NCBI GenBank assembly: GCA_937936785.1
Contig: CALDDQ010000002.1
Span: forward strand, 61,192 to 125,191
Origin: an uncultured Endomicrobiia bacterium
GTDB lineage: Bacteria; Elusimicrobiota; Endomicrobiia; DTEH01
Direction: 5' to 3'
Length of the DNA stretch: 64,000 bases
The notes under the pieces are model-generated. The model worked only from the letters and a program-made list of their open reading frames with translations. It did not search any database and was not told the origin of the DNA. Shown piece after piece: positions 5,290-36,694 of this stretch; positions within the stretch are counted from its first letter, which is position 1; the number at the start of each line of letters is the position of its first letter. A program made the position numbers and the translations under genes.

Positions 5290-5293
5290 AGTA

Positions 5294-6265
5294 ATGAGAA
5301 TAGATATTTTTAAAAAGATAGTAAGAGAAATTTTTTCATATGGCACATATTTTAACATAGTACCTAAACCGAATTTAAGACCAAATGGTATAAGTGCAAT
5401 GGTAAAAGTTTATAATGAGGAAAGATATTTAGAAGAATCTATTGACTCAGTTATGGATTTTGTTGATGAAATTGTTGTAGTTGATAATGGTTCAATTGAC
5501 GGTTCTTGGGAAAAACTGAACAAAATAAAAGAAAAAAATTCTAAAATAAAACTGTATAAGTTTGAAAATAAAAATTTTTGGAATTTTTCTAATTATGTAA
5601 TAGAAAAAACTTCCTACAGGTGGTTATTGAAATGGGATGCAGATTTTGTAGCTATTGTAAATAAAGGTAAAAACGAACTATCTTTTTTAAAGTCATTTAT
5701 AGATACTATAGATGATAATATACATTATTATTTTAAAATTCCTTTGGTTGAACTTGTAGGAGATTTCAATCACCAATTTCCAACAATGCGAGTTCGTAAG
5801 GATGCTGAGATTTTTACTTATTCAGATAGTGCTCGTTATATACCAGTAGAAAAATTTTTTAAAACTTCTCCTTATCCTTATAAATTACCAAATGATTTTG
5901 AAATATTTCCATGTAAAATAAAAATGGAAGGACTTAAATTACCATATTATTATAGGTTAGGAGAAATACCAAGAAATATTGCTTTTCATCTTAACATAAA
6001 ACCTTCTACTCGCTATTTGATAAGATATTTTTGGCCATCTTGGGCTTCTTCAAATAAAATAGACAATAAAGAAATAAACGAGCTTGAAACGTATGTTAAA
6101 GAATGGATTACTAAAAAATGGGGATTCAAGAATTTAGAAGAAGCAGCAAAATTTTTTTGTGATGAAATGAAAAAAAGTTTGGTAGAATATGATATAAGTT
6201 TAGGAAACTTACCAGATAATATAAAAATTCTTGCAGAAAAATTTTATGTTGAAAGTAATATATGA
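5294..6265 (+). CDS. Glycosyltransferase family 2-like
   Basis: 'ISAMVKVYNEERYLEESIDSV...DEIVVVDNGSIDGS' GT-A N-terminal motif. Start placed at the ATG (5294) just after the upstream stop rather than the overlapping ORF-track start 5270. Confidence 0.5.
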   Translation: MRIDIFKKIVREIFSYGTYFNIVPKPNLRPNGISAMVKVYNEERYLEESIDSVMDFVDEIVVVDNGSIDGSWEKLNKIKEKNSKIKLYKFENKNFWNFSNYVIEKTSYRWLLKWDADFVAIVNKGKNELSFLKSFIDTIDDNIHYYFKIPLVELVGDFNHQFPTMRVRKDAEIFTYSDSARYIPVEKFFKTSPYPYKLPNDFEIFPCKIKMEGLKLPYYYRLGEIPRNIAFHLNIKPSTRYLIRYFWPSWASSNKIDNKEINELETYVKEWITKKWGFKNLEEAAKFFCDEMKKSLVEYDISLGNLPDNIKILAEKFYVESNI

Positions 6266-6301
6266 TATATAAAAAATTTTACAATAAATTGAAATAACTA
6301 A

Positions 6302-7237
6302 ATGAATAAATTAAACTTAAATCTTTCTATATCAGCAATAATTGTTACATTTAATAGAAAAAAAAGTTTAGAGAAATGTTTAGAATCTTTATTTTATCAG
6401 ACATTACCAGCTAGCCATGTAATTTTAATAGATAATGCAAGCACAGATGGTACAGAAGAAATGGTCAAAAACAGGTTTAAACAAGTGTCATATTTTAGAC
6501 TTAGCGAGAACATTGGTGGAGCGGGTGGGTTTCACGAAGGAATAAAAATTGCTGTTAAAATGGGATTTTCATGGTTTTGGCTTATAGATGATGACAGTGT
6601 TCTTGATAAAAAAGCTCTAGAAAATTTAGTGTTATCGAGTAATCTTGATAAAAATAATGTATATGGTAGCATTACAGTATCTAATGAGGAACCCAATAAA
6701 ATAGTTTTTGGAATAATTGCAAAAGAAAATGATAAAAAAAAATATATAAAATATTATTGTGAAATACCTAAAATACCTTTAATAGAAACTGTTGGTATAG
6801 GTTTTTGTGGATTTTTTATTAGTAGAAGTGTCGTTGAAAAAGTTGGATTACCTATGAAAGAACTTTTTATCTATGCGGACGATTCTGAATATTCACGTAG
6901 AATAAATTTGAAATATAAAATAAAAATGTTTTATGTTAGAGAAAGTATAATTTATCATCCTGATATAAAATTAAGACAGATAAATTTTTTATGGAAAAAA
7001 ATTTCGATAATAGATTCTCCACCATGGAAGTGTTATTATAATATAAGGAATCATCTTTATTTGTTGAAACAATATAATAATTGGTTAAAATTTTATTTTT
7101 TTATTATACCAAAACAGTTTTTTTTTCTAATAATAAGGCTCTTATTTTTAGATAAAGATCAAAAGTTAAAAAGGTTTTATTTTTACTTTTTTGGAATTTT
7201 TGATAGTTTGTTAAATCGGTTTGGAAAGAGATTTTAA
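6302..7237 (+). CDS. Glycosyltransferase family 2 (rhamnosyltransferase-like)
   Basis: 'ISAIIVTFNRKKSLEKCLESL...ILIDNASTDGT', 'WLIDDDS' DxD. Confidence 0.75.
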   Translation: MNKLNLNLSISAIIVTFNRKKSLEKCLESLFYQTLPASHVILIDNASTDGTEEMVKNRFKQVSYFRLSENIGGAGGFHEGIKIAVKMGFSWFWLIDDDSVLDKKALENLVLSSNLDKNNVYGSITVSNEEPNKIVFGIIAKENDKKKYIKYYCEIPKIPLIETVGIGFCGFFISRSVVEKVGLPMKELFIYADDSEYSRRINLKYKIKMFYVRESIIYHPDIKLRQINFLWKKISIIDSPPWKCYYNIRNHLYLLKQYNNWLKFYFFIIPKQFFFLIIRLLFLDKDQKLKRFYFYFFGIFDSLLNRFGKRF

Positions 7238-22742: not shown

Positions 22743-23644
22743 AAAAAATTTTTTTAATAATAACATTGTTCATAAACAATATTTTTGCATTGCAACGAGC
22801 AGAATATTTGTTAAAAGAAGAATATGTTCGTTCACAGAAAGATTTGGAAGTAATATTTTTGGATGTAGGACAAGGAGATTGTTCTTTTATAAAAACACCT
22901 TCAGGAAAAACGTTACTGGTGGATGGTGGTGGTTCGCCATATTGGTTAGGGGAAGATGTGTGGGATCCTGGAAAAAATGTTATAATCCCGTATTTAAAAT
23001 CAAGAAATATTCAAGAACTTGACTATATTATAATATCACATCCTCATGGTGACCATTTTGGTGGTATTTTTGCAGTTTTAGAAAATATTAAAGTAAAAAC
23101 TTTCATTGACAACGGTTATGTTGAAGGAGATCCTAATTATAAAGACTTATTATTATTAGTTAAAAGAAAAGTATTGGTTTATGAACAAGTTAAAGAAGGT
23201 GATGAAATAAAATTAGACAAAGATATTTTTATTAGAGTATATTTTCCGCCAAAAAGAGGATTTCCATTTGAAGGTGGTAATAATTCTTCAATAATATTTA
23301 GTTTAATTTATAAAAATTTTTCTGTATTATTTACAGGAGATGCAGAAATGGATTTAGAAAATTATCTTATAAGTAAACATAAAAATTCAATAAATTCTAA
23401 TGTGTTAAAAATTCCGCATCATGGTTCAAGAACATCGTCCACAGTAAGATTTATTAAAACAGTAAATCCTGATGTTGGAATATTTTCAACTGGTAGAAAA
23501 AATCGTTTTGGTCACCCACATAGAGAAGTGGTATCAAGATATAGTAAGTTAAATGTAGATATTTACAACACAGCTGAAGAAGGTAATATTGTTGTGTTGT
23601 CAGACGGAGAAAGATTTACGGTATATTCAAATGTTGGTGAATAA
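22739..23644 (+). CDS. Exported MBL-fold metallo-hydrolase, ComEC/Rec2 C-terminal-domain-like
   Basis: Signal peptide; 'IIISHPHGDHFGG' HxHxDH motif; 'IPHHGS'. Confidence 0.7.
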   Translation: MKKIFLIITLFINNIFALQRAEYLLKEEYVRSQKDLEVIFLDVGQGDCSFIKTPSGKTLLVDGGGSPYWLGEDVWDPGKNVIIPYLKSRNIQELDYIIISHPHGDHFGGIFAVLENIKVKTFIDNGYVEGDPNYKDLLLLVKRKVLVYEQVKEGDEIKLDKDIFIRVYFPPKRGFPFEGGNNSSIIFSLIYKNFSVLFTGDAEMDLENYLISKHKNSINSNVLKIPHHGSRTSSTVRFIKTVNPDVGIFSTGRKNRFGHPHREVVSRYSKLNVDIYNTAEEGNIVVLSDGERFTVYSNVGE

Positions 23645-23721
23645 TTTTTGGTTATAAAAAATGTATTTTTTTATAATTATTGACAATTTATAAAAAATAA
23701 TTTATTAAAGACAACATTCTT

Positions 23722-23794
23722 GGGCCCGTAGCTCAGCTGGTAGAGCACCAGCCTTTTAAGCTGGCTGCCGAGAGTTCGAATCTCTCCGGGCTCA
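23722..23794 (+). tRNA. tRNA-Lys (anticodon UUU)
   Basis: Cloverleaf folded by hand: acceptor GGGCCCG/CGGGCUC (one G-U pair), D-arm GCUC/GAGC, anticodon stem CCAGC/GCUGG with loop CUUUUAA (anticodon at 23755-23757), T-arm GAGAG-UUCGAAU-CUCUC, discriminator A. CCA is not encoded. Confidence 0.9.
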
Positions 23795-24085
23795 GTTTTT
23801 ACTATCCGTTAAGTAGTGTGAAAATTTTTAAGTATTATCTTTTATAATCTATTTAAATTGATAGATTTGTATTTTAATAATTTTATAATACTTGCAAATA
23901 AAAAAACAAAAATATTTTTATCTATGAGATTGTTATAAATGGAAATTAATCTGTGGGTTTTTAATAAATTATTAAAAAAATCTAAAAAATAGTTTATATC
24001 ATAAATTTTTTATCAGTATTTTTTCTGGTCCATACTATACTTATTTTTTTAGTTATAAAAAATTCATTTATCTAATAGTCTTCAA

Positions 24086-24114
24086 AATATTATTGTTGAC
24101 TTTCTGTGTTAAAA
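24086..24114 (+). promoter_or_regulatory. Candidate sigma-70-type promoter for the BMC operon (TTGACT-N17-TATATT)
   Basis: TTGACT at 24086-24091, a 17-nt spacer, TATATT at 24109-24114, about 90 nt upstream of the first BMC gene. Found by eye only; Bacteroidota-type promoter rules may apply instead. Confidence 0.3.
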
Positions 24115-24200
24115 ATGATATATTTACAAGATAAAACGGTTTAAATTAAACAAAATATTTTTATTATAATTAGTGTTAACATTTATTGGAGGTAAGAGAT

Positions 24201-24509
24201 ATGCTTTTTGCACGGGTAATTGGCAATGTTGTTTGTACAAGAAAAGATGATAAATTGAAAGGTTCAAAATTGTTATTGGTCCAACCTGTAGATTTAGAAA
24301 ATAATCCTAAAGGGAATCCTATTGTGGCAGTTGACGCAGTTGGTGCAGGAGAAGGTGAGATGGTTTTGATAGTACAAGGTTCTTCTGCTCGTCAGACAAA
24401 GTATACTGAAGGTACACCTGTAGATTGTACAATTTTTGCAATTGTAGATTCAGCAGAACGTGATGGAAAAAAAGTTTTTAACAAAACACAGGATTATGAT
24501 AAAAGATAA
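24201..24509 (+). CDS. BMC vertex protein (BMC-P; EutN/PduN/CcmL family)
   Basis: 'MLFARVIGNVVCTRK...LLLVQPVD...AVDAVGAGEGEMVLIVQGSSAR'. GGAGG RBS 8 nt upstream of ATG 24201 (the ORF-track start 24186 lies further upstream). Confidence 0.85.
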   Translation: MLFARVIGNVVCTRKDDKLKGSKLLLVQPVDLENNPKGNPIVAVDAVGAGEGEMVLIVQGSSARQTKYTEGTPVDCTIFAIVDSAERDGKKVFNKTQDYDKR

Positions 24510-24552
24510 GGTTTAGTCGTTAACTAAAATTCTATGAAAATTAAACAGGAGA

Positions 24553-26010
24553 ATGTTTATGGTACAAATTACCGAATCTGAACTAAAAAATTTAGTAGAA
24601 CTTGTTTTACAGAGATTAGAACAAAGAAATATAAATTTTGATAATAGTCATACAATTGAGACAGGTATAAATTATTCTAAGTATCATTTATGTTTAACTG
24701 TAGAAGAAGCAGTTACAAGAGCAAAATACGCACAAAAAATATTTCAAAGTTTAGGTCTTGAGAAAAGAAAAGAAATTATAGATAACATCAGAAGAAAAAG
24801 TTTAGAAAATGCACAATATTTAGCACAAATTACTGAAGAAGAAACCAAAATGGGCCGTTGGGAAAATAAGGTAAAAAAAAATGTTTTAGCAGCAATAAAA
24901 ACGCCCGGTGTGGAAGATATTCAGCCTGTAACAGCATACACAGGAGATCATGGTTTGACTTTGGTTGAATATGCACCTTATGGAGTAATTGCTGCTGTTA
25001 CACCATCAACAAATCCAACTTCGACAATAATTAACAATTCAATTTCAATTTTATCAGCAGGAAATTCTGTAATTTTTGCTCCACACCCATCAGCAAAAAA
25101 ATGTTCTCAAGAAACTATAAGAATAATTTATGATGCAATAGTAGAATGTTCTGGTCCGAAAGATTTGATATTAACTATAGATCCGCCTTCTGTAGAAGCA
25201 ACGCAGTCATTATTAAAACATCCTGATATAAAATTGGTAGTTGTTACTGGAGGTCCAGCGATAGTGAAAGTAGCGATGCAGAGTGGTAAAAAAACGATAG
25301 CTGCGGGACCTGGAAATCCGCCTGTAGTAGTAGATGAAACAGCTGTGTTTCCAAAATGTGTAAATGACATAATAGATGGTTCGAGTTTTGATAACGGGAT
25401 TTTGTGTACTGCAGAAAAAGAAGTTATTTTAGTTGAAAGCGTAAAAGAAAAGTTTATATCATACATGCGCAGGGAGACTCGTGCTTACGAACTAACAAAA
25501 GAACAGATGGACCATTTAGCAAAACTTGCAATAAAAGAACCTGCAGGACCACACTGTAAAGAAGGTGTTATAAATCGTGATTTTGTAGGTAAAGATGCAA
25601 ATGTTATTGCTAAAAGTATTGGTTTAAATTTATCTGAAGATATAGTTTTATTATGGGGAGTTGTGCCTAATGATCATCCATATATATGGACAGAACAACT
25701 TATGCCAGTTTTACCCGTTACGGTAGTAAAAGACATTGATGAAGCAATAGATCTTGCAGTTAAGGTTGAAGGAGACAATCATCATACTTTTATAATACAT
25801 TCGTTAAATGTTGACACATTGACAAAAATGGCAAAAGCATGTCAAGGATCAATTTTGGTAAAAAACGGTCCTTCATTTATGGGGTTAGGTTTTGGTGAAG
25901 GATATGCTACCTTAACAATAGCGACACCTACAGGCGATGGTCTTACAAAAGCAAAAAATTTTACAAGACCATTAAGATGTGTTTTGGTAGATTATTTAAG
26001 GATAGTATAA
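24553..26010 (+). CDS. CoA-acylating aldehyde dehydrogenase (PduP/EutE-like), BMC-encapsulated type
   Basis: 485 aa ALDH fold; 'GILCTAEKE' catalytic-Cys region. N-terminal amphipathic 'SELKNLVELVLQRLEQ' resembles an encapsulation peptide. Confidence 0.85.
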   Translation: MFMVQITESELKNLVELVLQRLEQRNINFDNSHTIETGINYSKYHLCLTVEEAVTRAKYAQKIFQSLGLEKRKEIIDNIRRKSLENAQYLAQITEEETKMGRWENKVKKNVLAAIKTPGVEDIQPVTAYTGDHGLTLVEYAPYGVIAAVTPSTNPTSTIINNSISILSAGNSVIFAPHPSAKKCSQETIRIIYDAIVECSGPKDLILTIDPPSVEATQSLLKHPDIKLVVVTGGPAIVKVAMQSGKKTIAAGPGNPPVVVDETAVFPKCVNDIIDGSSFDNGILCTAEKEVILVESVKEKFISYMRRETRAYELTKEQMDHLAKLAIKEPAGPHCKEGVINRDFVGKDANVIAKSIGLNLSEDIVLLWGVVPNDHPYIWTEQLMPVLPVTVVKDIDEAIDLAVKVEGDNHHTFIIHSLNVDTLTKMAKACQGSILVKNGPSFMGLGFGEGYATLTIATPTGDGLTKAKNFTRPLRCVLVDYLRIV

Positions 26011-26032
26011 TTTATTTAATAAAAAAAAGTTT

Positions 26033-27358
26033 ATGGATGAGATAATTTATAGAATAAAAAGTGCTGGTATAGTAGGTGCAGGTGGTGCTGGGTTTCCAAC
26101 ATATTTTAAGTTAGAATCTGCAAAAGGTAAAGTTGATACTTATATAATCAATGCAGCCGAGTGTGAACCGTTATTAAAAGTTGACCAACAAATTTTAAAA
26201 GTTTATACAGAAGAAATTTTATCTGCAGCAAAGAAAGTTGGTGATTATCTCGGAGTGAAGAAGATTGTTATAGGAATAAAAGAAAAGTACAAAGATGCTA
26301 TAGAAGTTTTAGAAAAAAGTATCAAACAATATAATAATATAGAACTATATTTGTTAGAAAATTTTTATCCTGCAGGGGATGAGTTTACCTTAATAAACGA
26401 AGTTACAGGCAGGATTATTCCGGAGGGCGGGTTACCAGTAAATGTTGGTTGTGTGGTAAATAATGTTGTTACATTACTAAACATTTATAACGCAATTGAA
26501 AAAAATATTTCTGTTATTACGAGACCTGTGAGTATTGTAGGTGAAGTAAAAGATCCAAAAACTTTAATAGTTCCGGTTGGGACAATTATTAAGGATTTAA
26601 TAAAATTATGCGGTGGGACAACAGTGGAACATTTTGCGATTATTGATGGTGGTCCGATGATGGGAAAAGTTGTCTGTGAAGATGATGTTGTTACAAAACG
26701 TACTTCAGGTATACTTGTGTTACCTTTAGAACATCCTGTTGTTATTATGAAAACAGTATCTGAACATCAGTATTTGTATCAGATAAAATCTGCTTGTGAA
26801 CAATGCCAGGATTGTACCGAAATTTGTCCGAGGTATTTGTTGGGTCATGAATTTGAATGTCACAAGATTCAAAGATCTGTGTCATATCAAATAGACGAAT
26901 TTTTAACACAAGCGTTTTTATGTTGTGAATGTGGACTTTGTGATTGGGTTTGTCCTATGTATCTATTACCAAGAAAAACAAACCAGTTAGTGAAACAAAT
27001 TTTAATAAAAAAAGGAATAAAAAATTCGCATAACAAAAAACCTGATAATGTTCGTGCAACAAAAGAATATAGAAAAGTGCCTGTAGAACGTTTAATTTCA
27101 AGATTTAATTTAACAGAATATTTATCAAAAGAAGCACCTTTAGAATTAGATGTTAAAGAATTTTCTGTTGTTAAAATACCTTTGGTACAACACATTGGCG
27201 CAAAACCTGTTTCTGTGGTAAAAGTTGGAGATGAAGTAAAAAAGAATGATTTGATATCTGTCATAGATGATTACAAATTAGGGACAAATCATCATGCATC
27301 AATAGATGGTAAAATAATTTTAGTTAATGACGAACATATTGTAATAAGCAAAAATTAG
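26033..27358 (+). CDS. pduS: PduS-like / RnfC-like Fe-S flavoprotein (BMC-associated)
   Basis: 'SAGIVGAGGAGFPTYFKL...INAAECEPLL' RnfC/PduS N-terminal motif. Two 4Fe-4S motifs: 'CEQCQDCTEICP' and 'CCECGLCDWVCP'. Confidence 0.8.
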   Translation: MDEIIYRIKSAGIVGAGGAGFPTYFKLESAKGKVDTYIINAAECEPLLKVDQQILKVYTEEILSAAKKVGDYLGVKKIVIGIKEKYKDAIEVLEKSIKQYNNIELYLLENFYPAGDEFTLINEVTGRIIPEGGLPVNVGCVVNNVVTLLNIYNAIEKNISVITRPVSIVGEVKDPKTLIVPVGTIIKDLIKLCGGTTVEHFAIIDGGPMMGKVVCEDDVVTKRTSGILVLPLEHPVVIMKTVSEHQYLYQIKSACEQCQDCTEICPRYLLGHEFECHKIQRSVSYQIDEFLTQAFLCCECGLCDWVCPMYLLPRKTNQLVKQILIKKGIKNSHNKKPDNVRATKEYRKVPVERLISRFNLTEYLSKEAPLELDVKEFSVVKIPLVQHIGAKPVSVVKVGDEVKKNDLISVIDDYKLGTNHHASIDGKIILVNDEHIVISKN

Positions 27359-27372
27359 TGGAGGCATAATTT

Positions 27373-27927
27373 ATGCAATCATCATTAGTATTATTAGAAT
27401 TAAATTCAATTGCTCGTGGGCTAGAAACTGCAGATGCAATGTGCAAAGTTGCCACAGTAAATTTGATTGATGCATATGCAATTTGTCCTGGGAAATATAT
27501 CATAATAATAAACGGTTTATTAGCAGATGTGCAGTCATCTTTAAACAAAGGTATAGAAGTTGCGCAGCAACATTTAATTGATAAGTTGTTAATACCTAAC
27601 ATTAGTCCAAAAATTATTCCTGCAATATTAGGAACGTCAAAGATAAGACAAAATATAATTTCGTTAGGTTCTATAGAAACATTTTCAGCAGCAAGTTGTA
27701 TTGTTGCATCAGATTTAGCATCGAAAAAAGCAGATGTTGATTTGATAGAAATACGATTAGCAAAAGGTTTAGGTGGAAAATCGTATGTAACATTATGTTC
27801 TGATGATGTAGGTGCAGTAAAAAGTGCAATTAACGAAGCTGTAATTTATACCAAAAAAAATGGTTCACTGGTACAAAAAACAGTTATTCCACAGATACAT
27901 CCTGATATGTTAAAAACAATTTTATAG
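27373..27927 (+). CDS. pduT: Tandem-BMC-domain shell protein (BMC-T), PduT-like with Fe-S-ligand cysteine
   Basis: 184 aa, the same length as PduT. Two BMC domains ('LVLLELNSIARGLETADAMCKVATV' and 'SLGSIETFSAASCIVASDLASKKADV'). 'AICPGK' corresponds to the PduT [4Fe-4S]-ligating Cys. Confidence 0.8.
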   Translation: MQSSLVLLELNSIARGLETADAMCKVATVNLIDAYAICPGKYIIIINGLLADVQSSLNKGIEVAQQHLIDKLLIPNISPKIIPAILGTSKIRQNIISLGSIETFSAASCIVASDLASKKADVDLIEIRLAKGLGGKSYVTLCSDDVGAVKSAINEAVIYTKKNGSLVQKTVIPQIHPDMLKTIL

Positions 27928-27948
27928 GGATTATGATGTGAGGGAAGT

Positions 27949-28401
27949 ATGAATATAGTAATAGGTTCAGACCATGGAGGGTTTAAATTAAAAGAAATAT
28001 TAAAAAAGTTTTTGCAATTACAAAATCATACTGTGGCAGATTTTGGTTGTTATTCGGAGGAACCTGTTGATTGGACAGACATTGCATTATTAGTAGCAGA
28101 ATCGGTAAAGGACAGATATTATGATTTTGGTATTTTGATTGACGGGTTTGGTGGAGCTGTATGTCTTGCAGCAAACAAGGTTAAAGGAGTTCGTGCAGTT
28201 TGTGCATATAACGAATTTTCAGCTAGATTAGCAAAAGAACATGACGATGCAAACATACTATGTCTTGGTGGCAAGACAGTTGGTGATTTGGAAAATATTG
28301 AAATCGTGAAATCCTTTTTGTCAGCACTGCCTGCGAAAGATGAAAAATATTTACGTAGGTTAAAAAAGTTGGATGATATTGAAAAAAAATATTTTAAATA
28401 A
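27949..28401 (+). CDS. Ribose-5-phosphate isomerase B / LacAB-family sugar-phosphate isomerase, paralogue 1 (divergent)
   Basis: 'IVIGSDHGGFKLK'; 'GILIDGFGGAVCLAANKVKGVRAV' (Asp where RpiB normally has the catalytic Cys). Confidence 0.75.
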   Translation: MNIVIGSDHGGFKLKEILKKFLQLQNHTVADFGCYSEEPVDWTDIALLVAESVKDRYYDFGILIDGFGGAVCLAANKVKGVRAVCAYNEFSARLAKEHDDANILCLGGKTVGDLENIEIVKSFLSALPAKDEKYLRRLKKLDDIEKKYFK

Positions 28402-28407
28402 AAAATT

Positions 28408-28875
28408 ATGAACTTAGCAATAGCTTCAGATCATACAGGGTTTGAGATAAAAAAAAATCTTGTTAAAAAACTTAATAATGAAGGGTATAATGTAATAGAT
28501 TTTGGTTGTTATAGTGATGAAAGTTGTGATTATCCTGATTATGCAATAAAAGTATCAAAAGCTGTTCAAAGAAAAGATGCAAAATTTGGGATATTAATTT
28601 GTGGTAGTGGTATAGGGATGAGCATTGTTGCAAACAAATTTAAAGGTATTCGTGCAGGATTGTGTTTTTCGGAAGAAACAGCCAAACTTATTGCAGAACA
28701 CAATTTCGCAAACATAATATGTTTACCTGCAAGAATAAAAGTTTGTGGTGAGAATATATCCGAGGATAAACTTTATTTATGGATAAAGATCTGGTTAACA
28801 ACTTCAAATTCAACTGAAGATAGGCATATTAACAGAATAAAAAAAATTGAGTTGTTAGAGAAAGAGATTTTGTAA
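28408..28875 (+). CDS. rpiB: Ribose-5-phosphate isomerase B (RpiB/LacAB family), paralogue 2 (canonical)
   Basis: 'LAIASDHTGFEIK'; 'GILICGSGIGMSIVANKFKGIRA' with the conserved Cys. Confidence 0.8.
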   Translation: MNLAIASDHTGFEIKKNLVKKLNNEGYNVIDFGCYSDESCDYPDYAIKVSKAVQRKDAKFGILICGSGIGMSIVANKFKGIRAGLCFSEETAKLIAEHNFANIICLPARIKVCGENISEDKLYLWIKIWLTTSNSTEDRHINRIKKIELLEKEIL

Positions 28876-28900
28876 AAAGTTTTTTAAAGAGGCTAATGTT

Positions 28901-29299
28901 ATGATAAAAAAAATGTATTTATTAACAATGATACTTTTTCAAACAATTGTCTATGGACAAGAAAATTTAGATGATATTATAAAATTGTTAAACTCAGGAC
29001 AAAATGACAATGCAATAAACATGTTAAAATCTTTGGGTTCTGATAATGAAATATTGTTTGCGATAGCATATCTTGAGAAAAAAGATTTTTCTAATGCTAA
29101 AAGTTATGCTTTAAAAAGTTTTTCAAAAAATTCTAGTATTGTGGTTGCAAGTTATATTTTAGCACAGATATATGAAGAGCAGAAAGATTATTTAACTGCA
29201 ATAAAATATTGGGACAACGTATATCGTAATGCAAAAGATAAGACAGTGAAAATGTTAGCAAAAAAACAGTGTGAAGTTTTAAAAGTTTTAACAAAATGA
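28901..29299 (+). CDS. Small exported TPR-like protein
   Basis: Signal peptide 'MIKKMYLLTMILFQTIVYGQ'; helical repeat-like composition. No family recognised. Confidence 0.35.
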   Translation: MIKKMYLLTMILFQTIVYGQENLDDIIKLLNSGQNDNAINMLKSLGSDNEILFAIAYLEKKDFSNAKSYALKSFSKNSSIVVASYILAQIYEEQKDYLTAIKYWDNVYRNAKDKTVKMLAKKQCEVLKVLTK

Positions 29300-29877
29300 A
29301 AATAATATATAATACAACTGCCAAATTTTTAATTTTATTAACCATGTTGTTTTATGTTGGTTGTACGCTAACGCCAAGAGGTGTGTTTTATAAAGATTTT
29401 GACCCGAGAAGAATTTCAGTTATTTCAGTAGGACAATTTACAACTTCAAGTGGTAATGCTATTAGTGACTATGTGAAAAATTTAATGATACAAAATTTGT
29501 TAGCAAGAAACTTTACTGTAAAAGAAGTTAACTCGGAAGATGTAGATTATGTATTATTAGGGAGTGTAACAAAATTTTTGCCAGAGAAAAAATTTTTAGT
29601 ATACACAGGGACAAACAAACAACAAGTAATGTTAGGTGGTCCTTTGACAGAAATTAGTGGTAGTAATGTGTACAACATTGGCACTGCATTTGGTGTTTCG
29701 GATGGAGAAATAGTTGTTACTAACGCTACAGTAGGAGTTAGTGCGAGGTTAGTAGAAAAAAGAACAGGTAATGTTGTCTGGAGCAGTTCATTTTCGTACG
29801 AAGCGCTAACTGCAGATACTGCAGCAGAAATTGTTGCAAATTATTTGATTACTTCATTGACAGGGTTAAGAAGATAG
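29296..29877 (+). CDS. Putative lipoprotein
   Basis: Signal peptide with lipobox-like 'LFYVGC' followed by a Ser/Thr/Gly-rich beta-type domain. No family recognised. Confidence 0.4.
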   Translation: MKIIYNTTAKFLILLTMLFYVGCTLTPRGVFYKDFDPRRISVISVGQFTTSSGNAISDYVKNLMIQNLLARNFTVKEVNSEDVDYVLLGSVTKFLPEKKFLVYTGTNKQQVMLGGPLTEISGSNVYNIGTAFGVSDGEIVVTNATVGVSARLVEKRTGNVVWSSSFSYEALTADTAAEIVANYLITSLTGLRR

Positions 29878-29902
29878 CTCTAAACAAGGAGAATAAAAAA
29901 TT

Positions 29903-30193
29903 ATGCAAGCAGGGATAGTAGTAGGCCGTGTTTGGGCAACACAAGAATATGAAAGTTTGAAAGGAAAAAAATTGTTGTTAGTATTACCAACAACATGGGA
30001 TAAAAAAATTAAATCTAATGATCCGATTGTTATGGTAGATACAGTAGGTGCGGGTGCAGGTGAGTTTATTTTTTATGTTTCATCTAGAGAAGCAGCAGTA
30101 GCTTGTGGTGGCAACAGTTTAAAAGATACACCTCCGGTAGATGCAGCTATTGTTGGAATAATTGATGGAATAAATTTAACAGAGGAATTATAA
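29903..30193 (+). CDS. BMC vertex protein (BMC-P; EutN/CcmL family), paralogue 2
   Basis: 'MQAGIVVGRVWATQEYESLKGKKLLLV...MVDTVGAGAGEF'. Confidence 0.85.
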   Translation: MQAGIVVGRVWATQEYESLKGKKLLLVLPTTWDKKIKSNDPIVMVDTVGAGAGEFIFYVSSREAAVACGGNSLKDTPPVDAAIVGIIDGINLTEEL

Positions 30194-30492
30194 TGTTTAT
30201 AGCAAAAGTTGTAGGAAATCTTTGGGCTACAAGAAAACATAAAAGTTTAGAAGGTGGAAAACTTTTATTAGTAAAAAAGTGTGATGGTTTAACAGGCAAG
30301 TTTTACAATGAAGAACCATCTTTAGCAATTGACATAAATATTGGAGCAGGTATTGGCGATATTGTTTTAGTTATGGATGAAGGCAGTTCTGCTAGACAAA
30401 TTCTAAACAACAAAATTGCTCCTGTTAGAACAATAGTATGTGGAATTATTGATTTGGTAAATTCTGGCAAACAAACAAAAAAATGGCATTAA
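30193..30492 (+). CDS. BMC vertex protein (BMC-P; EutN/CcmL family), paralogue 3
   Basis: 'MFIAKVVGNLWATRKHKSLEGGKLLLV...AIDINIGAGIGDIVLV'. Start overlaps the upstream stop by 1 nt. Confidence 0.8.
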   Translation: MFIAKVVGNLWATRKHKSLEGGKLLLVKKCDGLTGKFYNEEPSLAIDINIGAGIGDIVLVMDEGSSARQILNNKIAPVRTIVCGIIDLVNSGKQTKKWH

Positions 30493-30530
30493 ATGTTAAG
30501 ACAAAAAAAAATTAAGGAGTTAAATAGATT

Positions 30531-32027
30531 ATGAAAAACTTGTTATGTATTTTAATGGGTGGAGACAGAAATTTGCAAACAGCGTTTAATGCAGTGAAAG
30601 AGTTTACAAAAATTTTTATAGTAAAAATTTTTGTAAGCAAATCAGCAACACAAATTATTGGCACAGAAAAGATAAAGTCAGAATTAAGAGGTTGTGAAAT
30701 TATTATACCAAACGGAGAATATCTTGACCCACATAAATTATCTAATTGGGCAGATGTTTTAGTTATTCCGATTTTAACTTTGAACGGTTTGGCAAAAATT
30801 GTAAATCTTATGCCAGATAGTCAACAGATTAATATTACGATTGGTTGTCTGGAAAAAGGTATTCCAGTGATTGTATCAAAGGATAGTGTATTTTGTTCTT
30901 GTTATCCAGACCCTTCTGTGAACAGTCCATTATATAGAAAAGTAGAACAAAATTTGTCAGAGTTAAAATCATTAGGGATAACAGTTTCTACAGGTGAAAA
31001 TTTAGTTAACAATGTTTTAATACAATGTGGTATGGTAGAAAGTGTGATAAAACCATCTTCAGGTGGGAAAATTTTTTCTAACAACAAAATAATTAATGTA
31101 ACTTCAACTACACTTGGAAAAAATTTTGTTTCTGATAATGTAAATGTTACGATAGGTTCAGCAGGAAAAATATTTTCTAAGCCTCTAACAAAAAGTGGTA
31201 ATATTATTGATGATATTTGTGTCGCATTTAAGTTGAGTGACACATCACAAAATTTAGAATGTTTAAGTTGTGGAAAATGCGTAGAACGAAAAAAAAGATC
31301 CGTAGCACAAGTAATAAATGCTGGTGCAGATAGAATTGCTGCATATGATGTAAAAGATGTTGGGAAAGAAATTGCTCCATTAATAGATCACACCTTACTT
31401 AAAGCAAATGCAACTCAAGAAGAGATTGTAAAATTGTGTGAAGAAGCGAAGAAATATAAGTTTGCTTCTGTATGTGTCAATCCCGCATATGTAAATTTGT
31501 GTAAGCAACTATTAGGATCAAGTTCAGTAAAGGTATGCACAGTGATAGGGTTTCCGTTGGGAGCAACAACTTCGACTGTCAAAGCAATAGAAACAAAAGA
31601 AGCAATTGCAAACGGTGCAGATGAAGTTGATATGGTAATAAATATAGGTGCACTAAAATCAGGAAATTATCAATTGGTTTTTGATGACATTAAATCTGTT
31701 AGGGAAGCCTCTAGAGGAAAAATTTTAAAGGTAATAATTGAAACTGCATATTTAACTAAAGAAGAAAAAATTAAAGCATGTGAATTGTCCAAAGAAGCAG
31801 GTGCAGATTTTGTAAAAACATCAACAGGATTTGGACCTTCAGGTGCAACAGCAGAAGATATTGCATTAATGAAATTTGTTGTTGGACCTAAAATTGGTGT
31901 TAAAGCTTCTGGTGGAATACGTTCATTAGATGATGCAGTAAAAATGGTGAAAGCAGGAGCGACACGAGTAGGAGCTTCTGCTTCAGTAGCAATTGTAAGA
32001 GGTGAAGTTGGTAAAAGTAAATATTAA
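30531..32027 (+). CDS. deoC: Fusion protein: N-terminal degenerate flavoprotein (HFCD/CoaC)-fold domain plus Cys-rich linker plus C-terminal class I deoxyribose-phosphate aldolase (DeoC)
   Basis: C-terminal about 230 aa are near-canonical DeoC ('[11 protein letters not shown]', '[11 protein letters not shown]', Schiff-base Lys in '[10 protein letters not shown]', '[10 protein letters not shown]'). N-terminal 'CILMGG...[18 protein letters not shown]...LKSLGITV' resembles the flavoprotein fold but lacks the FMN-binding signatures. Linker carries 'ECLSCGKC'. Confidence 0.8.
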
Positions 32028-32107
32028 AAAAACAGTTAACTAAAAAATGACAGTAAATAAAATTTTATAAAAAACCCGTGGAAAAATTTTTTATACAGGA
32101 GGAATTT

Positions 32108-32404
32108 ATGGAAGAGAAAGATGCAGTAGGAATGATAGAAACGCGCGGAATGGTTGGTATGGTAGAAGCCACAGATGCAATGGTAAAAGCGGCAAAGGTT
32201 AGACATATTGGGTATGAAAAGGTTGGGACAGGTTTAGTAACAACTTTTGTAAGAGGAGAAGTTGGAGCAGTGAGAGCTGCAGTTGAATCTGGTGCTGCCG
32301 CAGCACAGAAAGTTGGTGAGTTAGTTTCTGTCCATGTAATTCCGCGTCCACATGAGTATTTGGAAAAATTGTTGTCTAAAATAGAAAAAGATTTTGAAAA
32401 ATAA
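32108..32404 (+). CDS. BMC hexamer shell protein (BMC-H; PduA/EutM-like)
   Basis: 'AVGMIETRGMVGMVEATDAMVKAAKV...GEVGAVRAAVESG'. Start taken at ATG 32108, which follows a GGAGG RBS; the ORF-track start 32078 is a GTG. Confidence 0.85.
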   Translation: MEEKDAVGMIETRGMVGMVEATDAMVKAAKVRHIGYEKVGTGLVTTFVRGEVGAVRAAVESGAAAAQKVGELVSVHVIPRPHEYLEKLLSKIEKDFEK

Positions 32405-32455: not shown

Positions 32456-32770
32456 ATGAATAAAGAAGTTATTGTTGAGATTATTATTGAAGAACTTAAG
32501 AAACTTGGTTATTATGTTAATACAGAATCTCAATCAACAAATTTGGCTAAAAATTATAAATCAGGTTTTTTTACCAAAGAAAAATATATAAAAAGTGTAA
32601 CATCATTACCACCGGGTAAAAAATTAATTACAGAATATGATGTTAGACAGTATATTAAACTAAAAAATAACACAAAAGAATTTATAGTTCCAGAAAATGT
32701 TATTATAGGTCCTTTAGCAGAAGATTTAATAAATAGTTTAGAACTAAAGATTGTAAAGAAAAAAGGTTAA
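32456..32770 (+). CDS. Hypothetical protein (104 aa) immediately downstream of BMC-H
   Basis: ORF only; no recognisable motifs. Confidence 0.3.
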   Translation: MNKEVIVEIIIEELKKLGYYVNTESQSTNLAKNYKSGFFTKEKYIKSVTSLPPGKKLITEYDVRQYIKLKNNTKEFIVPENVIIGPLAEDLINSLELKIVKKKG

Positions 32771-32849: not shown

Positions 32850-33929
32850 TTGATGAACATAGACCAACTGTTGCAGGTTATGATAAAAACAGGGATTTCG
32901 GATATACATTTTAAATCAAACTCTGCCCCGTTAATAAGAATGAATGGGAAACTTATACCAACACAATATGAAAAGTTTACAAATGAATCAATACAAAAAA
33001 TGGCATATAGTTTAATGAACGATGTTCAAAAAAAAATTTTTGAGCAAGAAAACGAATTAGATTTTGCATATTCAATTTCTGGCTATGCAAGATTTAGAGT
33101 TAATATTTATAAACAAAAAAATTCTGTAGCTTTAACATTAAGAGTAATACCATTAGATTTAAAAACATTTCAAGATTTACATTTACCAAACGATGTTTTG
33201 ACAAAATTATGTAATGAATCACGGGGGTTAGTTTTAATAACAGGAGTGACAGGTTCAGGTAAAACAACGACATTAAATGCGATGTTGAATTTTATAAACG
33301 AAAAGTATCAATATAATATAATTACTGTAGAAGATCCAATTGAATATTATCATATTGACAAAAAATCTTCAATTTCTCAACGGGAAATAGGTAGTGATAC
33401 AAAATCGTTCAAGAATGCTTTAAGATACGTTTTAAGACAAGATCCAGATGTTGTAGTAATAGGAGAAATGCGCGATTTTGAAGCAATTTCTGCCGGGATA
33501 ACAGCAGCAGAAACAGGGCACTTAGTATTATCAACTATACATACTATAGATGCAGTACAAACAATTGATAGAATAATTGATACATATCCGCCACATCAAC
33601 AAAAACAAGCAAGGATTCAGTTATCTAATGTTTTAAAAGGTATTATTGGTCAAAGACTATGTTTATTAAATTCAGGCGAAGGAAGAATTCCTGCAACAGA
33701 AGTGTTAATAGCAACATCATTAGTTAGAAAATTAATTTTAGAAGATAAACCTCAAGAACTTTATAAAGCCATGGAAAATGGTGCATATTATTTAATGCAT
33801 ACATTTGACCAGGCATTATTAAAATTACATATTGATGGTGTAATTTCTTTTGAAGAAGCGATGGACAAAGCTACTAATCCAGAAGATTTACAATTAAAAC
33901 TTCGTGGAATTTCACAATCAAAAAGTTAA
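32850..33929 (+). CDS. pilT: Type IV pilus retraction ATPase PilT
   Basis: 'ISDIHF', Walker A 'GVTGSGKTTTL', Asp box 'NIITVEDPIEY', His box 'GHLVLSTIHT'; 359 aa. Confidence 0.85.
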   Translation: MMNIDQLLQVMIKTGISDIHFKSNSAPLIRMNGKLIPTQYEKFTNESIQKMAYSLMNDVQKKIFEQENELDFAYSISGYARFRVNIYKQKNSVALTLRVIPLDLKTFQDLHLPNDVLTKLCNESRGLVLITGVTGSGKTTTLNAMLNFINEKYQYNIITVEDPIEYYHIDKKSSISQREIGSDTKSFKNALRYVLRQDPDVVVIGEMRDFEAISAGITAAETGHLVLSTIHTIDAVQTIDRIIDTYPPHQQKQARIQLSNVLKGIIGQRLCLLNSGEGRIPATEVLIATSLVRKLILEDKPQELYKAMENGAYYLMHTFDQALLKLHIDGVISFEEAMDKATNPEDLQLKLRGISQSKS

Positions 33930-33947
33930 TTTTGGAGAAAATATTTC

Positions 33948-34778
33948 GTGAATGAATCAAGAAAGGATTTAAACGATATTTTATCAGAACTACATAAAGT
34001 ATTAGATGATTTATCTTTAGAAACAGGGGTGAAGGAAAAGTTAGAACCAGTAATTTCTAAAGAACCAAAATTAGATGAACTGGTTTCAGATAATAAGATT
34101 AAAAAAGAAGATATTGCTTTAGACACAGAACAAAATGTTAAGTTGAATACTTTGGTTAATGACAAAGAAAAAGAAATTTTCCAAGAATCAAAGGAATTTT
34201 ATGTGGAAGATAAAAAAGAACCATTGGTTGACAAACAAACGGTTGCTTTTGAACAAAATCATGCTGAACAACAACAAGATTTGCATGGACATCTGGTTAA
34301 TAACAATAACACAGAAAAAGTTTTAGAAGAAAAGTTACCACAAGAAACTAAAATAAAAGAATCTCAATCACAAGAATCTATTGTAATAAAACAAGAAGAT
34401 ATAAATCAAACTATAATAAATACAATCATTATATATCCTAAAAGTATTCCGGATGCTAAACAAACTTTTTATGATCAAGTCAACACAACATTAAAACGAG
34501 TAAGTAAAAAACCAGTAAGGATGATTTCTGTTTGGGAATTGCAGTATGAAAATTCAGAACAAGATTTGATAAAAAATTATAATTGGCTATTGTCACAGAT
34601 AAAAACAAATGATGTAAAAGGTCTTTTTTTTATAACGAATGAAGCAGTAATTTTAGATGATTTCATAAAAAAGGTTGCAATGGAAGTTTTTATGATAAAA
34701 TCTATAAAATATTCAGAACTTAAATCAAAATCTATATATTTGGATATAGCAATTGACATACTACTTACTGTAAAATAA
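33948..34778 (+). CDS. Acidic hypothetical protein whose C-terminal about 140 aa domain is shared with the downstream DnaA-like protein
   Basis: The Glu/Lys/Gln-rich N-terminal half is low complexity. C-terminal 'IIIYPKS...NYNWLLSQIKTNDVKGLFFIT...SIYLDIAIDILL' aligns by eye with the C-terminus of the 34790..36694 product. Confidence 0.4.
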   Translation: MNESRKDLNDILSELHKVLDDLSLETGVKEKLEPVISKEPKLDELVSDNKIKKEDIALDTEQNVKLNTLVNDKEKEIFQESKEFYVEDKKEPLVDKQTVAFEQNHAEQQQDLHGHLVNNNNTEKVLEEKLPQETKIKESQSQESIVIKQEDINQTIINTIIIYPKSIPDAKQTFYDQVNTTLKRVSKKPVRMISVWELQYENSEQDLIKNYNWLLSQIKTNDVKGLFFITNEAVILDDFIKKVAMEVFMIKSIKYSELKSKSIYLDIAIDILLTVK

Positions 34779-34789
34779 AATAATAAAAA

Positions 34790-36694
34790 ATGATAACTTC
34801 TTGGGAGTTAAAATTTTCTCCTGTTGAAAAATATTCCAACAGGTATAGATTAAAGGTAAATTGTTCTAATGAAGATGTTGAAGAAATTAGTAGTTTTTTA
34901 AAAGACGAGTTAAAACTTGATATATCACCTGCGTTTCAATCTTTAAGTGGCGAATATAACTGGGGAATTTATATTTATGATTTGAAGAATGATGAAAAAC
35001 AAAAACTCGTAGAAAAAATGTTTTTTGTATGTAAAAATGGTTTTGTAGAGGATAAAGAAAAAATGCAACCAAATGTAGAAAAAACAAATGTTGCAGATGT
35101 TTCACCCGAGCTAGGAAATATTTTATCAGATTTAGTAAAAAATATGACAGAAAAAGCTGTTGCTACAAATTCAGAAAAAGAAACTTTTGTAAATGTAAAA
35201 ACTATTGAAGAAGAATATCAAGGGTTACCTTTAGTTCCAAGATATACATTTGAAAATTTTGTAGTAGGTCCAAATAATAGGTTTACTCACGCAGCAGCAT
35301 TGGCTGTTGCAGAAAATCCTGGCAAAACTTATAATCCATTATTTATTTATGGTGGAGTAGGTCTTGGTAAAACACATTTAATGCAAGCTGTAGGGCATTT
35401 TTTAAAAACAAAAAAACCTCTAAGTAAAATCATGTATATAACTTCAGAAAAATTTGTAAGTCAAGTTATAGAAGCTATAAGAAAAGGTGGAATTCGTAAT
35501 TTACGCGATTCGTATCGTGATATAGATTTACTTTTGATTGATGATATACAATTTATGGCAGATTCAGAATCTACTCAAGAAGAATTTTTCCATATATTTA
35601 ACACATTACACCAATATGGCCGGCAGATAGTAATGACTAGTGATAGACCACCAAAATTACTTACAACTTTAGAGGATAGATTAAGGTCAAGGTTTGAGTG
35701 GGGCTTAATTGCAGATATAAAATCTCCTTCATTAGAGACACGTGTCGCAATTTTAAAACGCAAAGGTGAAGAAGAAAATGTTAATTTAGATGATAATATT
35801 TTGTTATACATAGCATCAAAACTTAAGTCCAACATTCGTGAATTAGAAGGTTTTTTAAAACGAATAAATGTGTATGCAAATTTGACGAATCAGCCAGTAG
35901 ATATTACTTTAGTTAAACAATTAATGAGCGAATTGTTACCAAAAGAAGAACTTACTGATGAAGAAAAAAGTATTTTAGAAAAAAGTAATGAAGAGACATC
36001 TTCTTCGACTAAGGATGTTGTATCTATTCCCAAACCGAAACCCAAGGTTCAAACATTTAAATCAGCAACACAAAATGACAGTCGTGATAATGTAAAAACT
36101 GTTGTTCAAAAAGTAAAACCAATTTCAATTGAGAACATATATAAATCATCTAAAGAAATTCCTAATACAGTATCAAAACCAGAATCAAAAAATATAGAAG
36201 AACAAAAATTTGTTGTAGAACAACAAAATAAGATTTCTCCACAACAGAATGAAGATAAACTAATAAAGATAGATGAAGAAAAATTTTATCAGGACTACGA
36301 ATCTGCAGTTAATGTAGTTGAAGTATCATTTTTTTATCCGGAGGGTAAGTTAGAAGAGTTGTATGTAGTAAAACAGAAGTTTGCTGAAATTATCAAAAAA
36401 CATAATTTAAGATACAAAATAGTTACAGCTTTTGATAGGCCATATGCATTAGAAAACATAAACTATAAAATGTTTTTAGAATTATGTAAAACTAATAAAA
36501 TTGATGTTTGTGTTTTAATCTCGCCACAACCCGGCGAGATAGTTTCTACGGAAGAATTTTATGAAAACATAGCTCCGTTAATGGAAGCAGGAGAGATTAT
36601 CTTTGAATTCATTCCTTGGCGTGATTTAACTAAAGAATATAGATATTTAAACCTAGCATTAGACATTGCATTGTCAAAATTTAAATTAGAATAA
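34790..36694 (+). CDS. DnaA-like AAA+ ATPase: canonical DnaA domain III, but no DnaA domain IV (DNA-binding HTH); instead a charged linker and an unrecognised C-terminal domain
   Basis: Domain III motifs: 'RYTFENFVVGPNNRFTHAAALAVAENPGKTYNPLFIYGGVGLGKTHL', 'IDLLLIDDIQF', 'QEEFFHIFNTLHQYGRQIVMTSDRPP', 'LEDRLRSRFEWGLIADI', 'SNIRELEGFLKRI'. No 'GGRDHTTV'-type signature anywhere C-terminal. Not followed by dnaN. Confidence 0.6.
   Translation: MITSWELKFSPVEKYSNRYRLKVNCSNEDVEEISSFLKDELKLDISPAFQSLSGEYNWGIYIYDLKNDEKQKLVEKMFFVCKNGFVEDKEKMQPNVEKTNVADVSPELGNILSDLVKNMTEKAVATNSEKETFVNVKTIEEEYQGLPLVPRYTFENFVVGPNNRFTHAAALAVAENPGKTYNPLFIYGGVGLGKTHLMQAVGHFLKTKKPLSKIMYITSEKFVSQVIEAIRKGGIRNLRDSYRDIDLLLIDDIQFMADSESTQEEFFHIFNTLHQYGRQIVMTSDRPPKLLTTLEDRLRSRFEWGLIADIKSPSLETRVAILKRKGEEENVNLDDNILLYIASKLKSNIRELEGFLKRINVYANLTNQPVDITLVKQLMSELLPKEELTDEEKSILEKSNEETSSSTKDVVSIPKPKPKVQTFKSATQNDSRDNVKTVVQKVKPISIENIYKSSKEIPNTVSKPESKNIEEQKFVVEQQNKISPQQNEDKLIKIDEEKFYQDYESAVNVVEVSFFYPEGKLEELYVVKQKFAEIIKKHNLRYKIVTAFDRPYALENINYKMFLELCKTNKIDVCVLISPQPGEIVSTEEFYENIAPLMEAGEIIFEFIPWRDLTKEYRYLNLALDIALSKFKLE

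Follow-up and report, generated by a model that had tools for sequence, protein, structure and literature searches.

The 64-kb window analysed here (the whole stretch of 64,000 nucleotides from contig CALDDQ010000002.1 of an uncultured Endomicrobiia bacterium) carries a gene at 30531-32027 (+ strand) whose 498-aa product joins a flavoprotein-fold domain to a class I deoxyribose-phosphate aldolase (DERA). It is a real, conserved single gene, and it lies in a locus for a sugar-phosphate-utilising (SPU) bacterial microcompartment (BMC). From the N-terminus, the protein consists of the flavoprotein-fold domain, a repeat linker, a four-Cys motif, a helix and the DERA barrel. The N-terminal half takes the place where an encapsulation peptide (EP) helix usually sits, and we favour reading it as a non-catalytic assembly or tethering module, a proposal to which we give about an even chance of being right.

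Integrity and distribution of the fusion gene

The open reading frame (ORF) is complete and starts with ATG. An AAGGAG that resembles a Shine-Dalgarno sequence, read directly from the DNA, lies 11 nt before the ATG (30514-30519, +), and a TAG stands in frame at 30525-30527, two codons upstream of it. This in-frame stop fixes the start and rules out any upstream extension, including an upstream EP. As the GC content of the window is 27.5%, an ORF of 498 codons is far beyond chance, and a chance ORF was rejected on these grounds. The continuous 498-aa frame reported in a preliminary description of this DNA is thus borne out.

Searching with residues 1-280 retrieved four proteins of 483-487 aa that have the same two-domain layout and are 44-78% identical in the N-terminal part, and the alignment of P0001-P0005 runs collinearly without breaks across the junction. 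A scan of species-representative genomes gave five loci matching the N-terminal query (L004-L008), in Endomicrobia/Elusimicrobia metagenome-assembled genomes and one Ignavibacteria metagenome-assembled genome; L006, L007 and L008 hold uninterrupted ORFs of 483-533 aa. A profile search for the N-terminal region across 1.84 billion cluster representatives found 199 relatives, and the top 150 cluster representatives include another 12 DERA fusions, which are far more divergent and come from GC-rich organisms. With residues 222-498 as query, the nearest public DERAs are mostly from Elusimicrobia, and the long, flavoprotein-containing form makes up 37 of the 112 nearest DERAs with a called extension. 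On a rough neighbour-joining tree of extended DERAs, presence and absence of the flavoprotein domain change about six times by gain or loss. Altogether, at least 37 collinear fusion homologues, down to ~40% identity, come from independent assemblies.

The preliminary description had left room for a frameshift that fuses two genes. As P0001-P0005, five loci and 37 of the 112 extended DERAs all show the fusion in collinear form, a frameshift is excluded. More generally, the probability that a sequencing or assembly error joined a flavoprotein gene to deoC is close to negligible: DERA-only NCBI gene calls could resemble two genes and we found no supporting evidence for an error, whereas the same continuous frame recurs at 40-85% identity in independent ENA, NCBI, JGI and Logan assemblies.

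Annotation pipelines hide the architecture of these genes, as they label them deoxyribose-phosphate aldolase or truncate them. Public records give the fusions simply that name, some with precomputed PF02441 and PF01791 matches. At L008, the ORF at 4836-6437 encodes 533 aa including a flavoprotein-fold domain, yet the NCBI product (P0185) is only a DERA of 231 aa; about 15 of the 127 nearest DERAs look likewise shortened by gene calling. Automated annotation has been reported to miss the extensions of SPU DERAs (Dwyer et al., 2024; PMC11585597), and P0185 matches that warning.

The aldolase domain

As judged by family models and alignment, residues 281-489 (31371-31997, +) are an intact class I DERA with a TIM-barrel fold. 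The NCBIfam equivalog model for deoC, TIGR00126, matches these residues with 299 bits against a cutoff of 117.3, and Pfam DeoC matches with an E-value of 1.7e-22. In BLASTP against the E. coli DeoC sequence, D367, K429 (the Schiff-base Lys) and K458 align with D102, K167 and K201. The barrel is confident in the AlphaFold2 model and superposable on solved DERAs. The 299-bit match and the catalytic triad confirm the earlier assignment of the last ~230 aa to a canonical class I DERA, and membership of the family would imply cleavage of deoxyribose 5-phosphate. An SPU6 DERA without its N-terminal extension is soluble, dimeric and active and still binds RPI (Dwyer et al., 2024; PMC11585597); neither catalysis nor the binding of RPI therefore depends on the extension.

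The flavoprotein-fold domain

Residues 1-172 (30531-31046, +) form a domain of the HFCD/PF02441 fold, in a BMC-associated, TIGR02536-like branch. As a single sequence, the protein scores below threshold with Pfam Flavoprotein PF02441 (19.4 bits, gathering threshold 22.7). TIGR02536 ("ethanolamine utilisation hypothetical") matches residues 72-162 with an E-value of 5e-6 (26.3 bits, cutoff 152.6), over model positions 52-141 only. A 22-sequence family profile compared with the PDB matches EpiD (5e-9) and DpaB (1.6e-7), and also PPCDC, CoaBC and UbiX. With a 148-sequence alignment, AlphaFold2 models residues 1-172 with a pLDDT of 92-98; with only five close homologues, the pLDDT of the N-terminal half is below 50. 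The HFCD fold and the homology of this domain are established, because the family profile matches EpiD and DpaB and the AlphaFold2 model is confident. The HFCD/CoaC flavoprotein fold that had been proposed for the first ~170 aa is thereby upheld.

Four motifs were placed in the domain, namely GGDRNL (residues 10-15), SKSA (36-39), a PASANT-like motif (80-90) and FCSC (121-124), with the HFCD motifs defined as in EpiD and AtHAL3a. Of these, S/T-x-x-A is kept as SKSA. The counterpart of PASANT(L/I)xK reads P80-I-L-T83-L-N85-G-L-A-K89, in which T, N and K are kept and A, S and T are changed, and T83, N85, K89 and D96 rank with the best-conserved residues across the BMC branch as a whole. In place of the FMN-phosphate loop G-S-(V/I)-A stands GGDRNL, with an acidic residue, and the PxMN site is occupied by SKDSVFCSC. 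No conserved His was found opposite EpiD H67 or HAL3 H90, and the His at position 68 varies among close homologues. The statement in the preliminary description that the usual FMN-contacting signatures are missing therefore applies to the FMN-phosphate loop, PxMN and the catalytic His; SKSA and the PASANT-like motif (T83, N85, K89) are kept. Since the catalytic His, PxMN and the phosphate loop are lost, residues 1-172 are, on their motifs, not an HFCD decarboxylase.

There is no N-terminal EP helix, and the protein begins directly with beta-1 of the HFCD fold. The EP is also absent in the close relatives P0005 and L006, whereas the more distant fusions P0004 and P0008-P0028 keep an EP helix ahead of the flavoprotein fold.

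The remainder of the N-terminal extension

The linker (residues 173-226; 31047-31208, +) is predicted to be disordered, with a pLDDT below 50. It contains three copies of x-G-K-(I/N)-F spaced about 16-17 aa apart: SGGKIF (residues 178-182; 31062-31076, +), TLGKNF (residues 195-199; 31113-31127, +) and SAGKIF (residues 211-215; 31161-31175, +), the last directly preceded by VNVTIG. In its strict form, the repeat motif occurs once among the window ORFs of at least 80 aa, in the fusion gene.

The linker is followed by a putative metal site (Fe-S or Zn), the four-Cys motif C230-x13-C244-x2-C247-x2-C250 (CVAFK...ECLSCGKC; residues 230-250; 31218-31280, +). The previously noticed Cys triad ECLSCGKC is present at residues 243-250 and is part of this larger motif with C230. 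All four Cys are invariant in five close homologues, and CxnCx2Cx2C or CxnCx3Cx2C is found in ~94 of the 112 extended DERAs; two fusions, P0012 and P0027, are without the motif. A scan of ten Cys regions with Fer4 models gave sub-threshold matches only, three of them weak hits with E-values of 0.003-0.03, and the Cys region of the fusion matches Fer4_21 with an E-value of 0.021 and 15.4 bits against a cutoff of 35. The ferredoxin signature C-x2-C-x2-C-x3-C-P was not found here, as the fourth Cys lies upstream (C230) and not downstream. From the spacing, an Fe-S cluster on the four Cys is plausible, with Zn as the alternative.

Just before the barrel lies a helix that ends in AGADRI (residues 255-269; 31293-31337, +). 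It is modelled at residues 255-266 with a pLDDT of ~60, within a region (residues 227-275) of low to moderate confidence. A264-I269 (AGADRI) is invariant in close homologues, and a GADR-type motif occurs in most extended DERAs. The helix is probably part of the N-terminal extension described for SPU DERAs (Dwyer et al., 2024; PMC11585597).

The DERAs of the clade that have no flavoprotein domain (310-350 aa) show a fixed order in their N-terminal extension: an EP helix, one to three copies of (V/I)-T-x-G-(T/S)-A-G-K-(V/I)-F, the four-Cys motif, a GADRI-type helix and the barrel. Here the four-Cys motif takes the form C-P-A-F-x(n)-C-x2-C-G-x-C or C-x(n)-C-x3-C-x2-C-N-P. By this comparison of sequences, the repeats, the four-Cys motif and the GADRI helix are the standard N-extension of the DERA clade, and the flavoprotein fold stands in the position of the EP helix. 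The Cys-rich linker had been taken as a feature of the fusion, and instead turns out to be a general element of the clade. Among the Elusimicrobia DERAs P0175-P0268 (310-350 aa), an alternative Cys pattern occurs, C-x5-6-C-x3-C-x2-C-N-P ... ADRVSFCNP with 6-7 Cys, which has the CX3CX2C spacing of radical-SAM proteins and comes without a radical-SAM domain.

The BMC flavoprotein family and its putative link to PduM

Most relatives of the N-terminal domain are free-standing proteins of 250-290 aa that consist of an amphipathic EP, the flavoprotein fold and a C-terminal module with the pattern K-x-I-T-x-x-D-V ... I-I-T-P-L-A-x-D. Within the family (n = 148), 135 members match PF02441 (E <= 0.01), 122 match TIGR02536, 53 match PduM (TIGR04493) and 27 match Pfam PDU_like, with the PduM and EutQ matches located on the C-terminal module. 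One member with an EP, the flavoprotein fold and a PduM-like tail (P0021; 9001-9786 of L014) is encoded in a complete pdu operon with PduL and PduN on either side, i.e., in the slot of PduM. In the literature, PduM has been described as being without homologues outside Pdu. P0013 adjoins a BMC-P gene; the contigs of P0007 and P0013 are short and otherwise uninformative. In the cluster representative P0138 (477 aa), PduL phosphotransacylase is fused to the same flavoprotein-fold domain and a PduM-like tail, so the domain is also attached to a different core enzyme.

PduM itself, a structural protein of low abundance, has an N-terminal signal sequence and resides in the core, and its loss partly uncouples core and shell (PMC12108088). 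In the literature, the BMC "flavoproteins" figure only as accessory proteins of uncharacterised role or as possible carriers of electrons (Axen et al., 2014; PMC4207490; Sutter et al., 2024; PMC11626177). On the matches above, the N-terminal domain comes from a microcompartment-specific, apparently structural lineage.

Proposed function of the N-terminal half

The proposal of a non-catalytic, structural module follows from the free-standing relatives, which carry an EP and a PduM-like tail and one of which occupies the PduM slot. The preliminary description had suggested BMC targeting or oligomerisation in place of catalysis. That idea fits the loss of the catalytic His and PxMN and the membership in a BMC-specific branch with EP- and PduM-tail-bearing members; the function itself is what we infer from this evidence, and flavin chemistry would have been lost along the way.

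In the mechanism we propose, DERA, the signature enzyme of the SPU BMC, would do the chemistry, and the adjoining aldehyde dehydrogenase (AldDH) would consume the acetaldehyde. The N-terminal 280 residues would provide four pieces, namely the HFCD-fold domain, three AGK(I/V)F-type motifs, a four-Cys metal knuckle and the GADRI helix packing beside the barrel. HFCD proteins are obligate trimers or higher cages. Combining a fold that forms trimers or cages with a dimeric enzyme, as SPU DERA is (Dwyer et al., 2024; PMC11585597), could produce a multivalent chain that nucleates or cross-links the cargo core. Links from this core to the shell may come from the linear motifs, the metal knuckle and an EP-bearing, PduM-like protein encoded at 32456-32770 (+).

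Several observations weigh against this proposal. P80, N85, K89, D96 and A39, which are the most conserved positions in the BMC branch, fall on the motif of the FMN pocket in HFCD proteins; the domain may thus still bind flavin, and this would speak for a redox role. The spacing of the four Cys is of the Fe-S type, and an MNdh/BMC-T(SE) pair for electron export is encoded in the locus. The AlphaFold2 model has a pTM of 0.55, with no confident placement of the N-terminal domain relative to DERA and no predicted contact between the domains. The link to PduM depends on sub-threshold hidden Markov model (HMM) scores, and in L009 a small PduM-like gene stands beside a DERA without a flavoprotein domain, i.e., the pairing of the two is not specific to the fusion.

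Part of this evidence would suit a redox module, with flavin bound by the HFCD fold and a [4Fe-4S] cluster by the four-Cys motif. Such a module could serve as electron relay or acceptor in NAD+ recycling by MNdh/BMC-T(SE), or it could sense redox state or oxygen and gate the packaging or activity of DERA accordingly. Conservation within the BMC branch is highest in the PASANT-like motif (T83, N85, K89, D96) and S/T-x-x-A. Both C-x(n)-C-x2-C-(G)-x-C and C-x3-C-x2-C show a three-Cys spacing that is classic for Fe-S sites, to which a fourth Cys is added, often as CP, and weak Fer4 matches were seen in three of the ten Cys regions. In the locus, a PduS-like MNdh adjoins a BMC-T with a CPGK motif, and pfam02441 proteins in MNdh operons have been suggested as electron acceptors (Sutter et al., 2024; PMC11626177). 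However, the chemistry of DERA is non-redox, the FMN-phosphate loop of the fusions is GGD(R/x) with its acidic residue, PxMN is lost and the Fer4 matches are far below threshold. In addition, most DERAs of the clade have the four-Cys motif and no flavoprotein domain, and P0012 and P0027 are fusions without the motif, which argues against an obligate pair. The suggested acceptor must also be outside the shell, yet relatives of the domain carry EPs. We therefore consider a redox module of this kind rather unlikely. A broader version, in which the N-extension of the entire DERA clade is a redox device, with a [4Fe-4S] cluster on the four Cys and flavin in the HFCD fold of the fusions, seems to us unlikely as well. 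That device would couple DERA to a luminal NADH/MNdh/BMC-T(SE) chain, or control the assembly of cargo in response to oxygen or redox state; if true, this would be the first case of an encapsulation module that carries a cofactor, and PF02441/PduM-like proteins across EUT, PDU, GRM and SPU organelles would gain a function.

A regulatory role, with the Rossmann-like HFCD fold reused to bind a nucleotide or sugar phosphate and control DERA allosterically, is improbable. The fold is of a nucleotide-binding type, its catalytic residues are lost and its pocket-lining motif is kept, and the domain is attached to the enzyme by direct fusion. Against this, the domain is also present in free-standing proteins that have EP and PduM-like modules, and in a PduL fusion, which argues for a generic BMC role, and a disordered linker of ~55 residues separates it from DERA, with no contact predicted between the two. 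Finally, a bifunctional protein with an active HFCD-type flavoenzyme (Cys decarboxylase, UbiX-like prenyltransferase or DmrB-like reductase) is very improbable in spite of the true HFCD fold and the profile homology to EpiD, PPCDC and UbiX, as the domain has lost or replaced its catalytic His, phosphate loop and PxMN substrate/FMN motif, the curated HFCD equivalog models all score far below their cutoffs, and no plausible substrate is apparent in the locus.

The SPU locus and its neighbouring genes

The SPU locus spans 24186-32404 (+) of this Endomicrobia-like genome and encodes BMC-H, BMC-T and BMC-P shell proteins, AldDH and RpiB; neighbouring genes were identified by Pfam scans and from their translations. 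It begins with BMC-P (24186-24509, +), followed by AldDH with an N-terminal EP helix (24553-26010, +) and the PduS-like NADH dehydrogenase MNdh with Complex1_51K, SLBB, Fer4 and RnfC_N domains (26033-27358, +). Next are the tandem-BMC protein BMC-T with the CPGK pore motif (27373-27927, +), a pair of RpiB genes (27949-28401 and 28408-28875, +), a TPR protein (28901-29299, +) and a lipoprotein-like protein of 193 aa and unknown function with the signal ...LLTMLFYVGC (29296-29877, +). A BMC-P pair (29903-30193 and 30193-30492, +) precedes the fusion gene, and the only BMC-H of the window locus follows it (32078-32404, +). The same SPU synteny is present in L001, L009 and L010.

The CPGK motif is associated with the Fe-S-bearing BMC-T(SE) partner of MNdh, and the adjoining MNdh and CPGK BMC-T genes correspond to the NAD+-recycling electron-export pair described with it (Sutter et al., 2024; PMC11626177). 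Neither RpiB paralogue has an N-terminal extension; the first has Asp at the position of the catalytic Cys (GILIDGFGG) and the second keeps the Cys (GILICGSGIG). The pair is LacA/LacB-like and differs from the statement that all SPU RPIs have Asp at this position (Dwyer et al., 2024; PMC11585597). The TPR and lipoprotein-like genes between RpiB and the BMC-P pair have equivalents at the same position in L001 and L009, and a secreted lipoprotein is odd for a microcompartment operon. Upstream of the first BMC-P (23644-24186), the window has no TIM, PTAC or BMC-H gene, whereas the Endomicrobia locus L001 (1644-3414) has all three upstream of the counterpart of this BMC-P.

Downstream of BMC-H, a 104-aa gene (32456-32770, +) encodes an EP-like N-terminal helix (MNKEVIVEIIIEELKKLG), a conserved YKSGFFT stretch and a module with the pattern KKLITEYDV...VIIGPLAEDL. 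This module scores 29 bits with a custom HMM of the C-terminal modules of the free-standing flavoprotein family, and the protein matches TIGR02536 positions 123-206 with an E-value of 5.4e-6; the small ORFs gave no match to Pfam PDU_like. As the N-terminal domain of the fusion covers positions 52-141, the two genes together tile the model. L003, L006, L007, L009 and L010 all share the order DERA, BMC-H, small gene. Fission of a TIGR02536-type gene into the N-terminal domain and the 104-aa gene was considered and is weakened by L009: as the DERA there has no flavoprotein domain, the small protein is a general component of such loci and not a fission product tied to the fusion. From its layout of EP and module, the 104-aa protein looks like a mini-PduM of SPU loci, and it is a candidate partner of the fusion supplied in trans.

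The block of DERA, BMC-H and small gene is followed in the window by a PilT-like T2SSE ATPase and a protein with a DnaA-ATPase domain (634 aa) (32850-36694, +). These two genes come after the same block in every Elusimicrobia relative examined (L003, L009, L010), and in L010 and L011 the block lies apart from the remaining SPU genes.

Significance and comparison with known systems

SPU BMCs are among the most widespread bacterial organelles, and DERA and RPI have been studied biochemically in one subtype only. Our results describe a large, Elusimicrobia-centred clade in which the signature enzyme carries a folded domain of the BMC "flavoprotein"/PduM-like type, a near-universal four-Cys motif and short linear repeats. 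This offers handles on cargo recruitment without a canonical EP, on the role of PF02441/PduM-type proteins and on metal or flavin cofactors in SPU cargo. In full-text searches, which covered the main text of the 2024 study, we found no paper that describes a fusion of the flavoprotein fold with DERA or a Cys motif in the extensions of SPU DERAs, and the main text of that study does not mention the four-Cys motif or the AGK(I/V)F repeats (PMC11585597).

Among described proteins, the nearest are the SPU DERA with its ~70-residue extension and the RPI-DERA fusions of SPU3 loci, then the BMC PF02441/TIGR02536 proteins, and then PduM. Like the fusion, the SPU DERA is a signature enzyme of the DeoC family encoded among BMC shell, AldDH, RpiB and PduS-like genes, keeps the D/K/K triad and has an N-terminal extension that non-BMC DERAs do not have (Dwyer, Sutter & Kerfeld, 2024; PMC11585597). 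Its extension consists of a helix and two strands and was read as an EP, whereas that of the fusion has ~280 residues, starts with the HFCD domain and has no EP. The RPI-DERA fusions likewise place a module of the locus N-terminal to DERA and keep the DERA-proximal element of the extension in between (Axen et al., 2014; PMC4207490; Dwyer et al., 2024; PMC11585597). In contrast to these, the partner here is of the flavoprotein-fold, PduM-associated type and RpiB is encoded separately as a pair.

The BMC PF02441/TIGR02536 (eut_hyp) proteins of EUT2, GRM3 and PDU loci are homologous to residues 1-172 and form a BMC-specific, uncharacterised family. The fusion differs from the free-standing members in that it has no EP, its domain is joined to DERA and the C-terminal module is found in the separate 104-aa gene. 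Compared with the HFCD flavoproteins EpiD, MrsD, CoaC/Dfp, AtHAL3a/PPCDC, DmrB/AfpA, UbiX and DpaB, the domain is 15-23% identical, has neither the catalytic His nor PxMN, and carries GGDRNL as its loop. The relation to PduM runs through the free-standing relatives of the domain, which end in a module that matches the C-terminal half of PduM; a PduM-like module is absent from the fusion protein, and at the level of single sequences the similarity is sub-threshold. As a speculation, the VTxG...GK repeats of the DERA extension resemble the [IV][TS]G shell-binding repeats of CsoS2.

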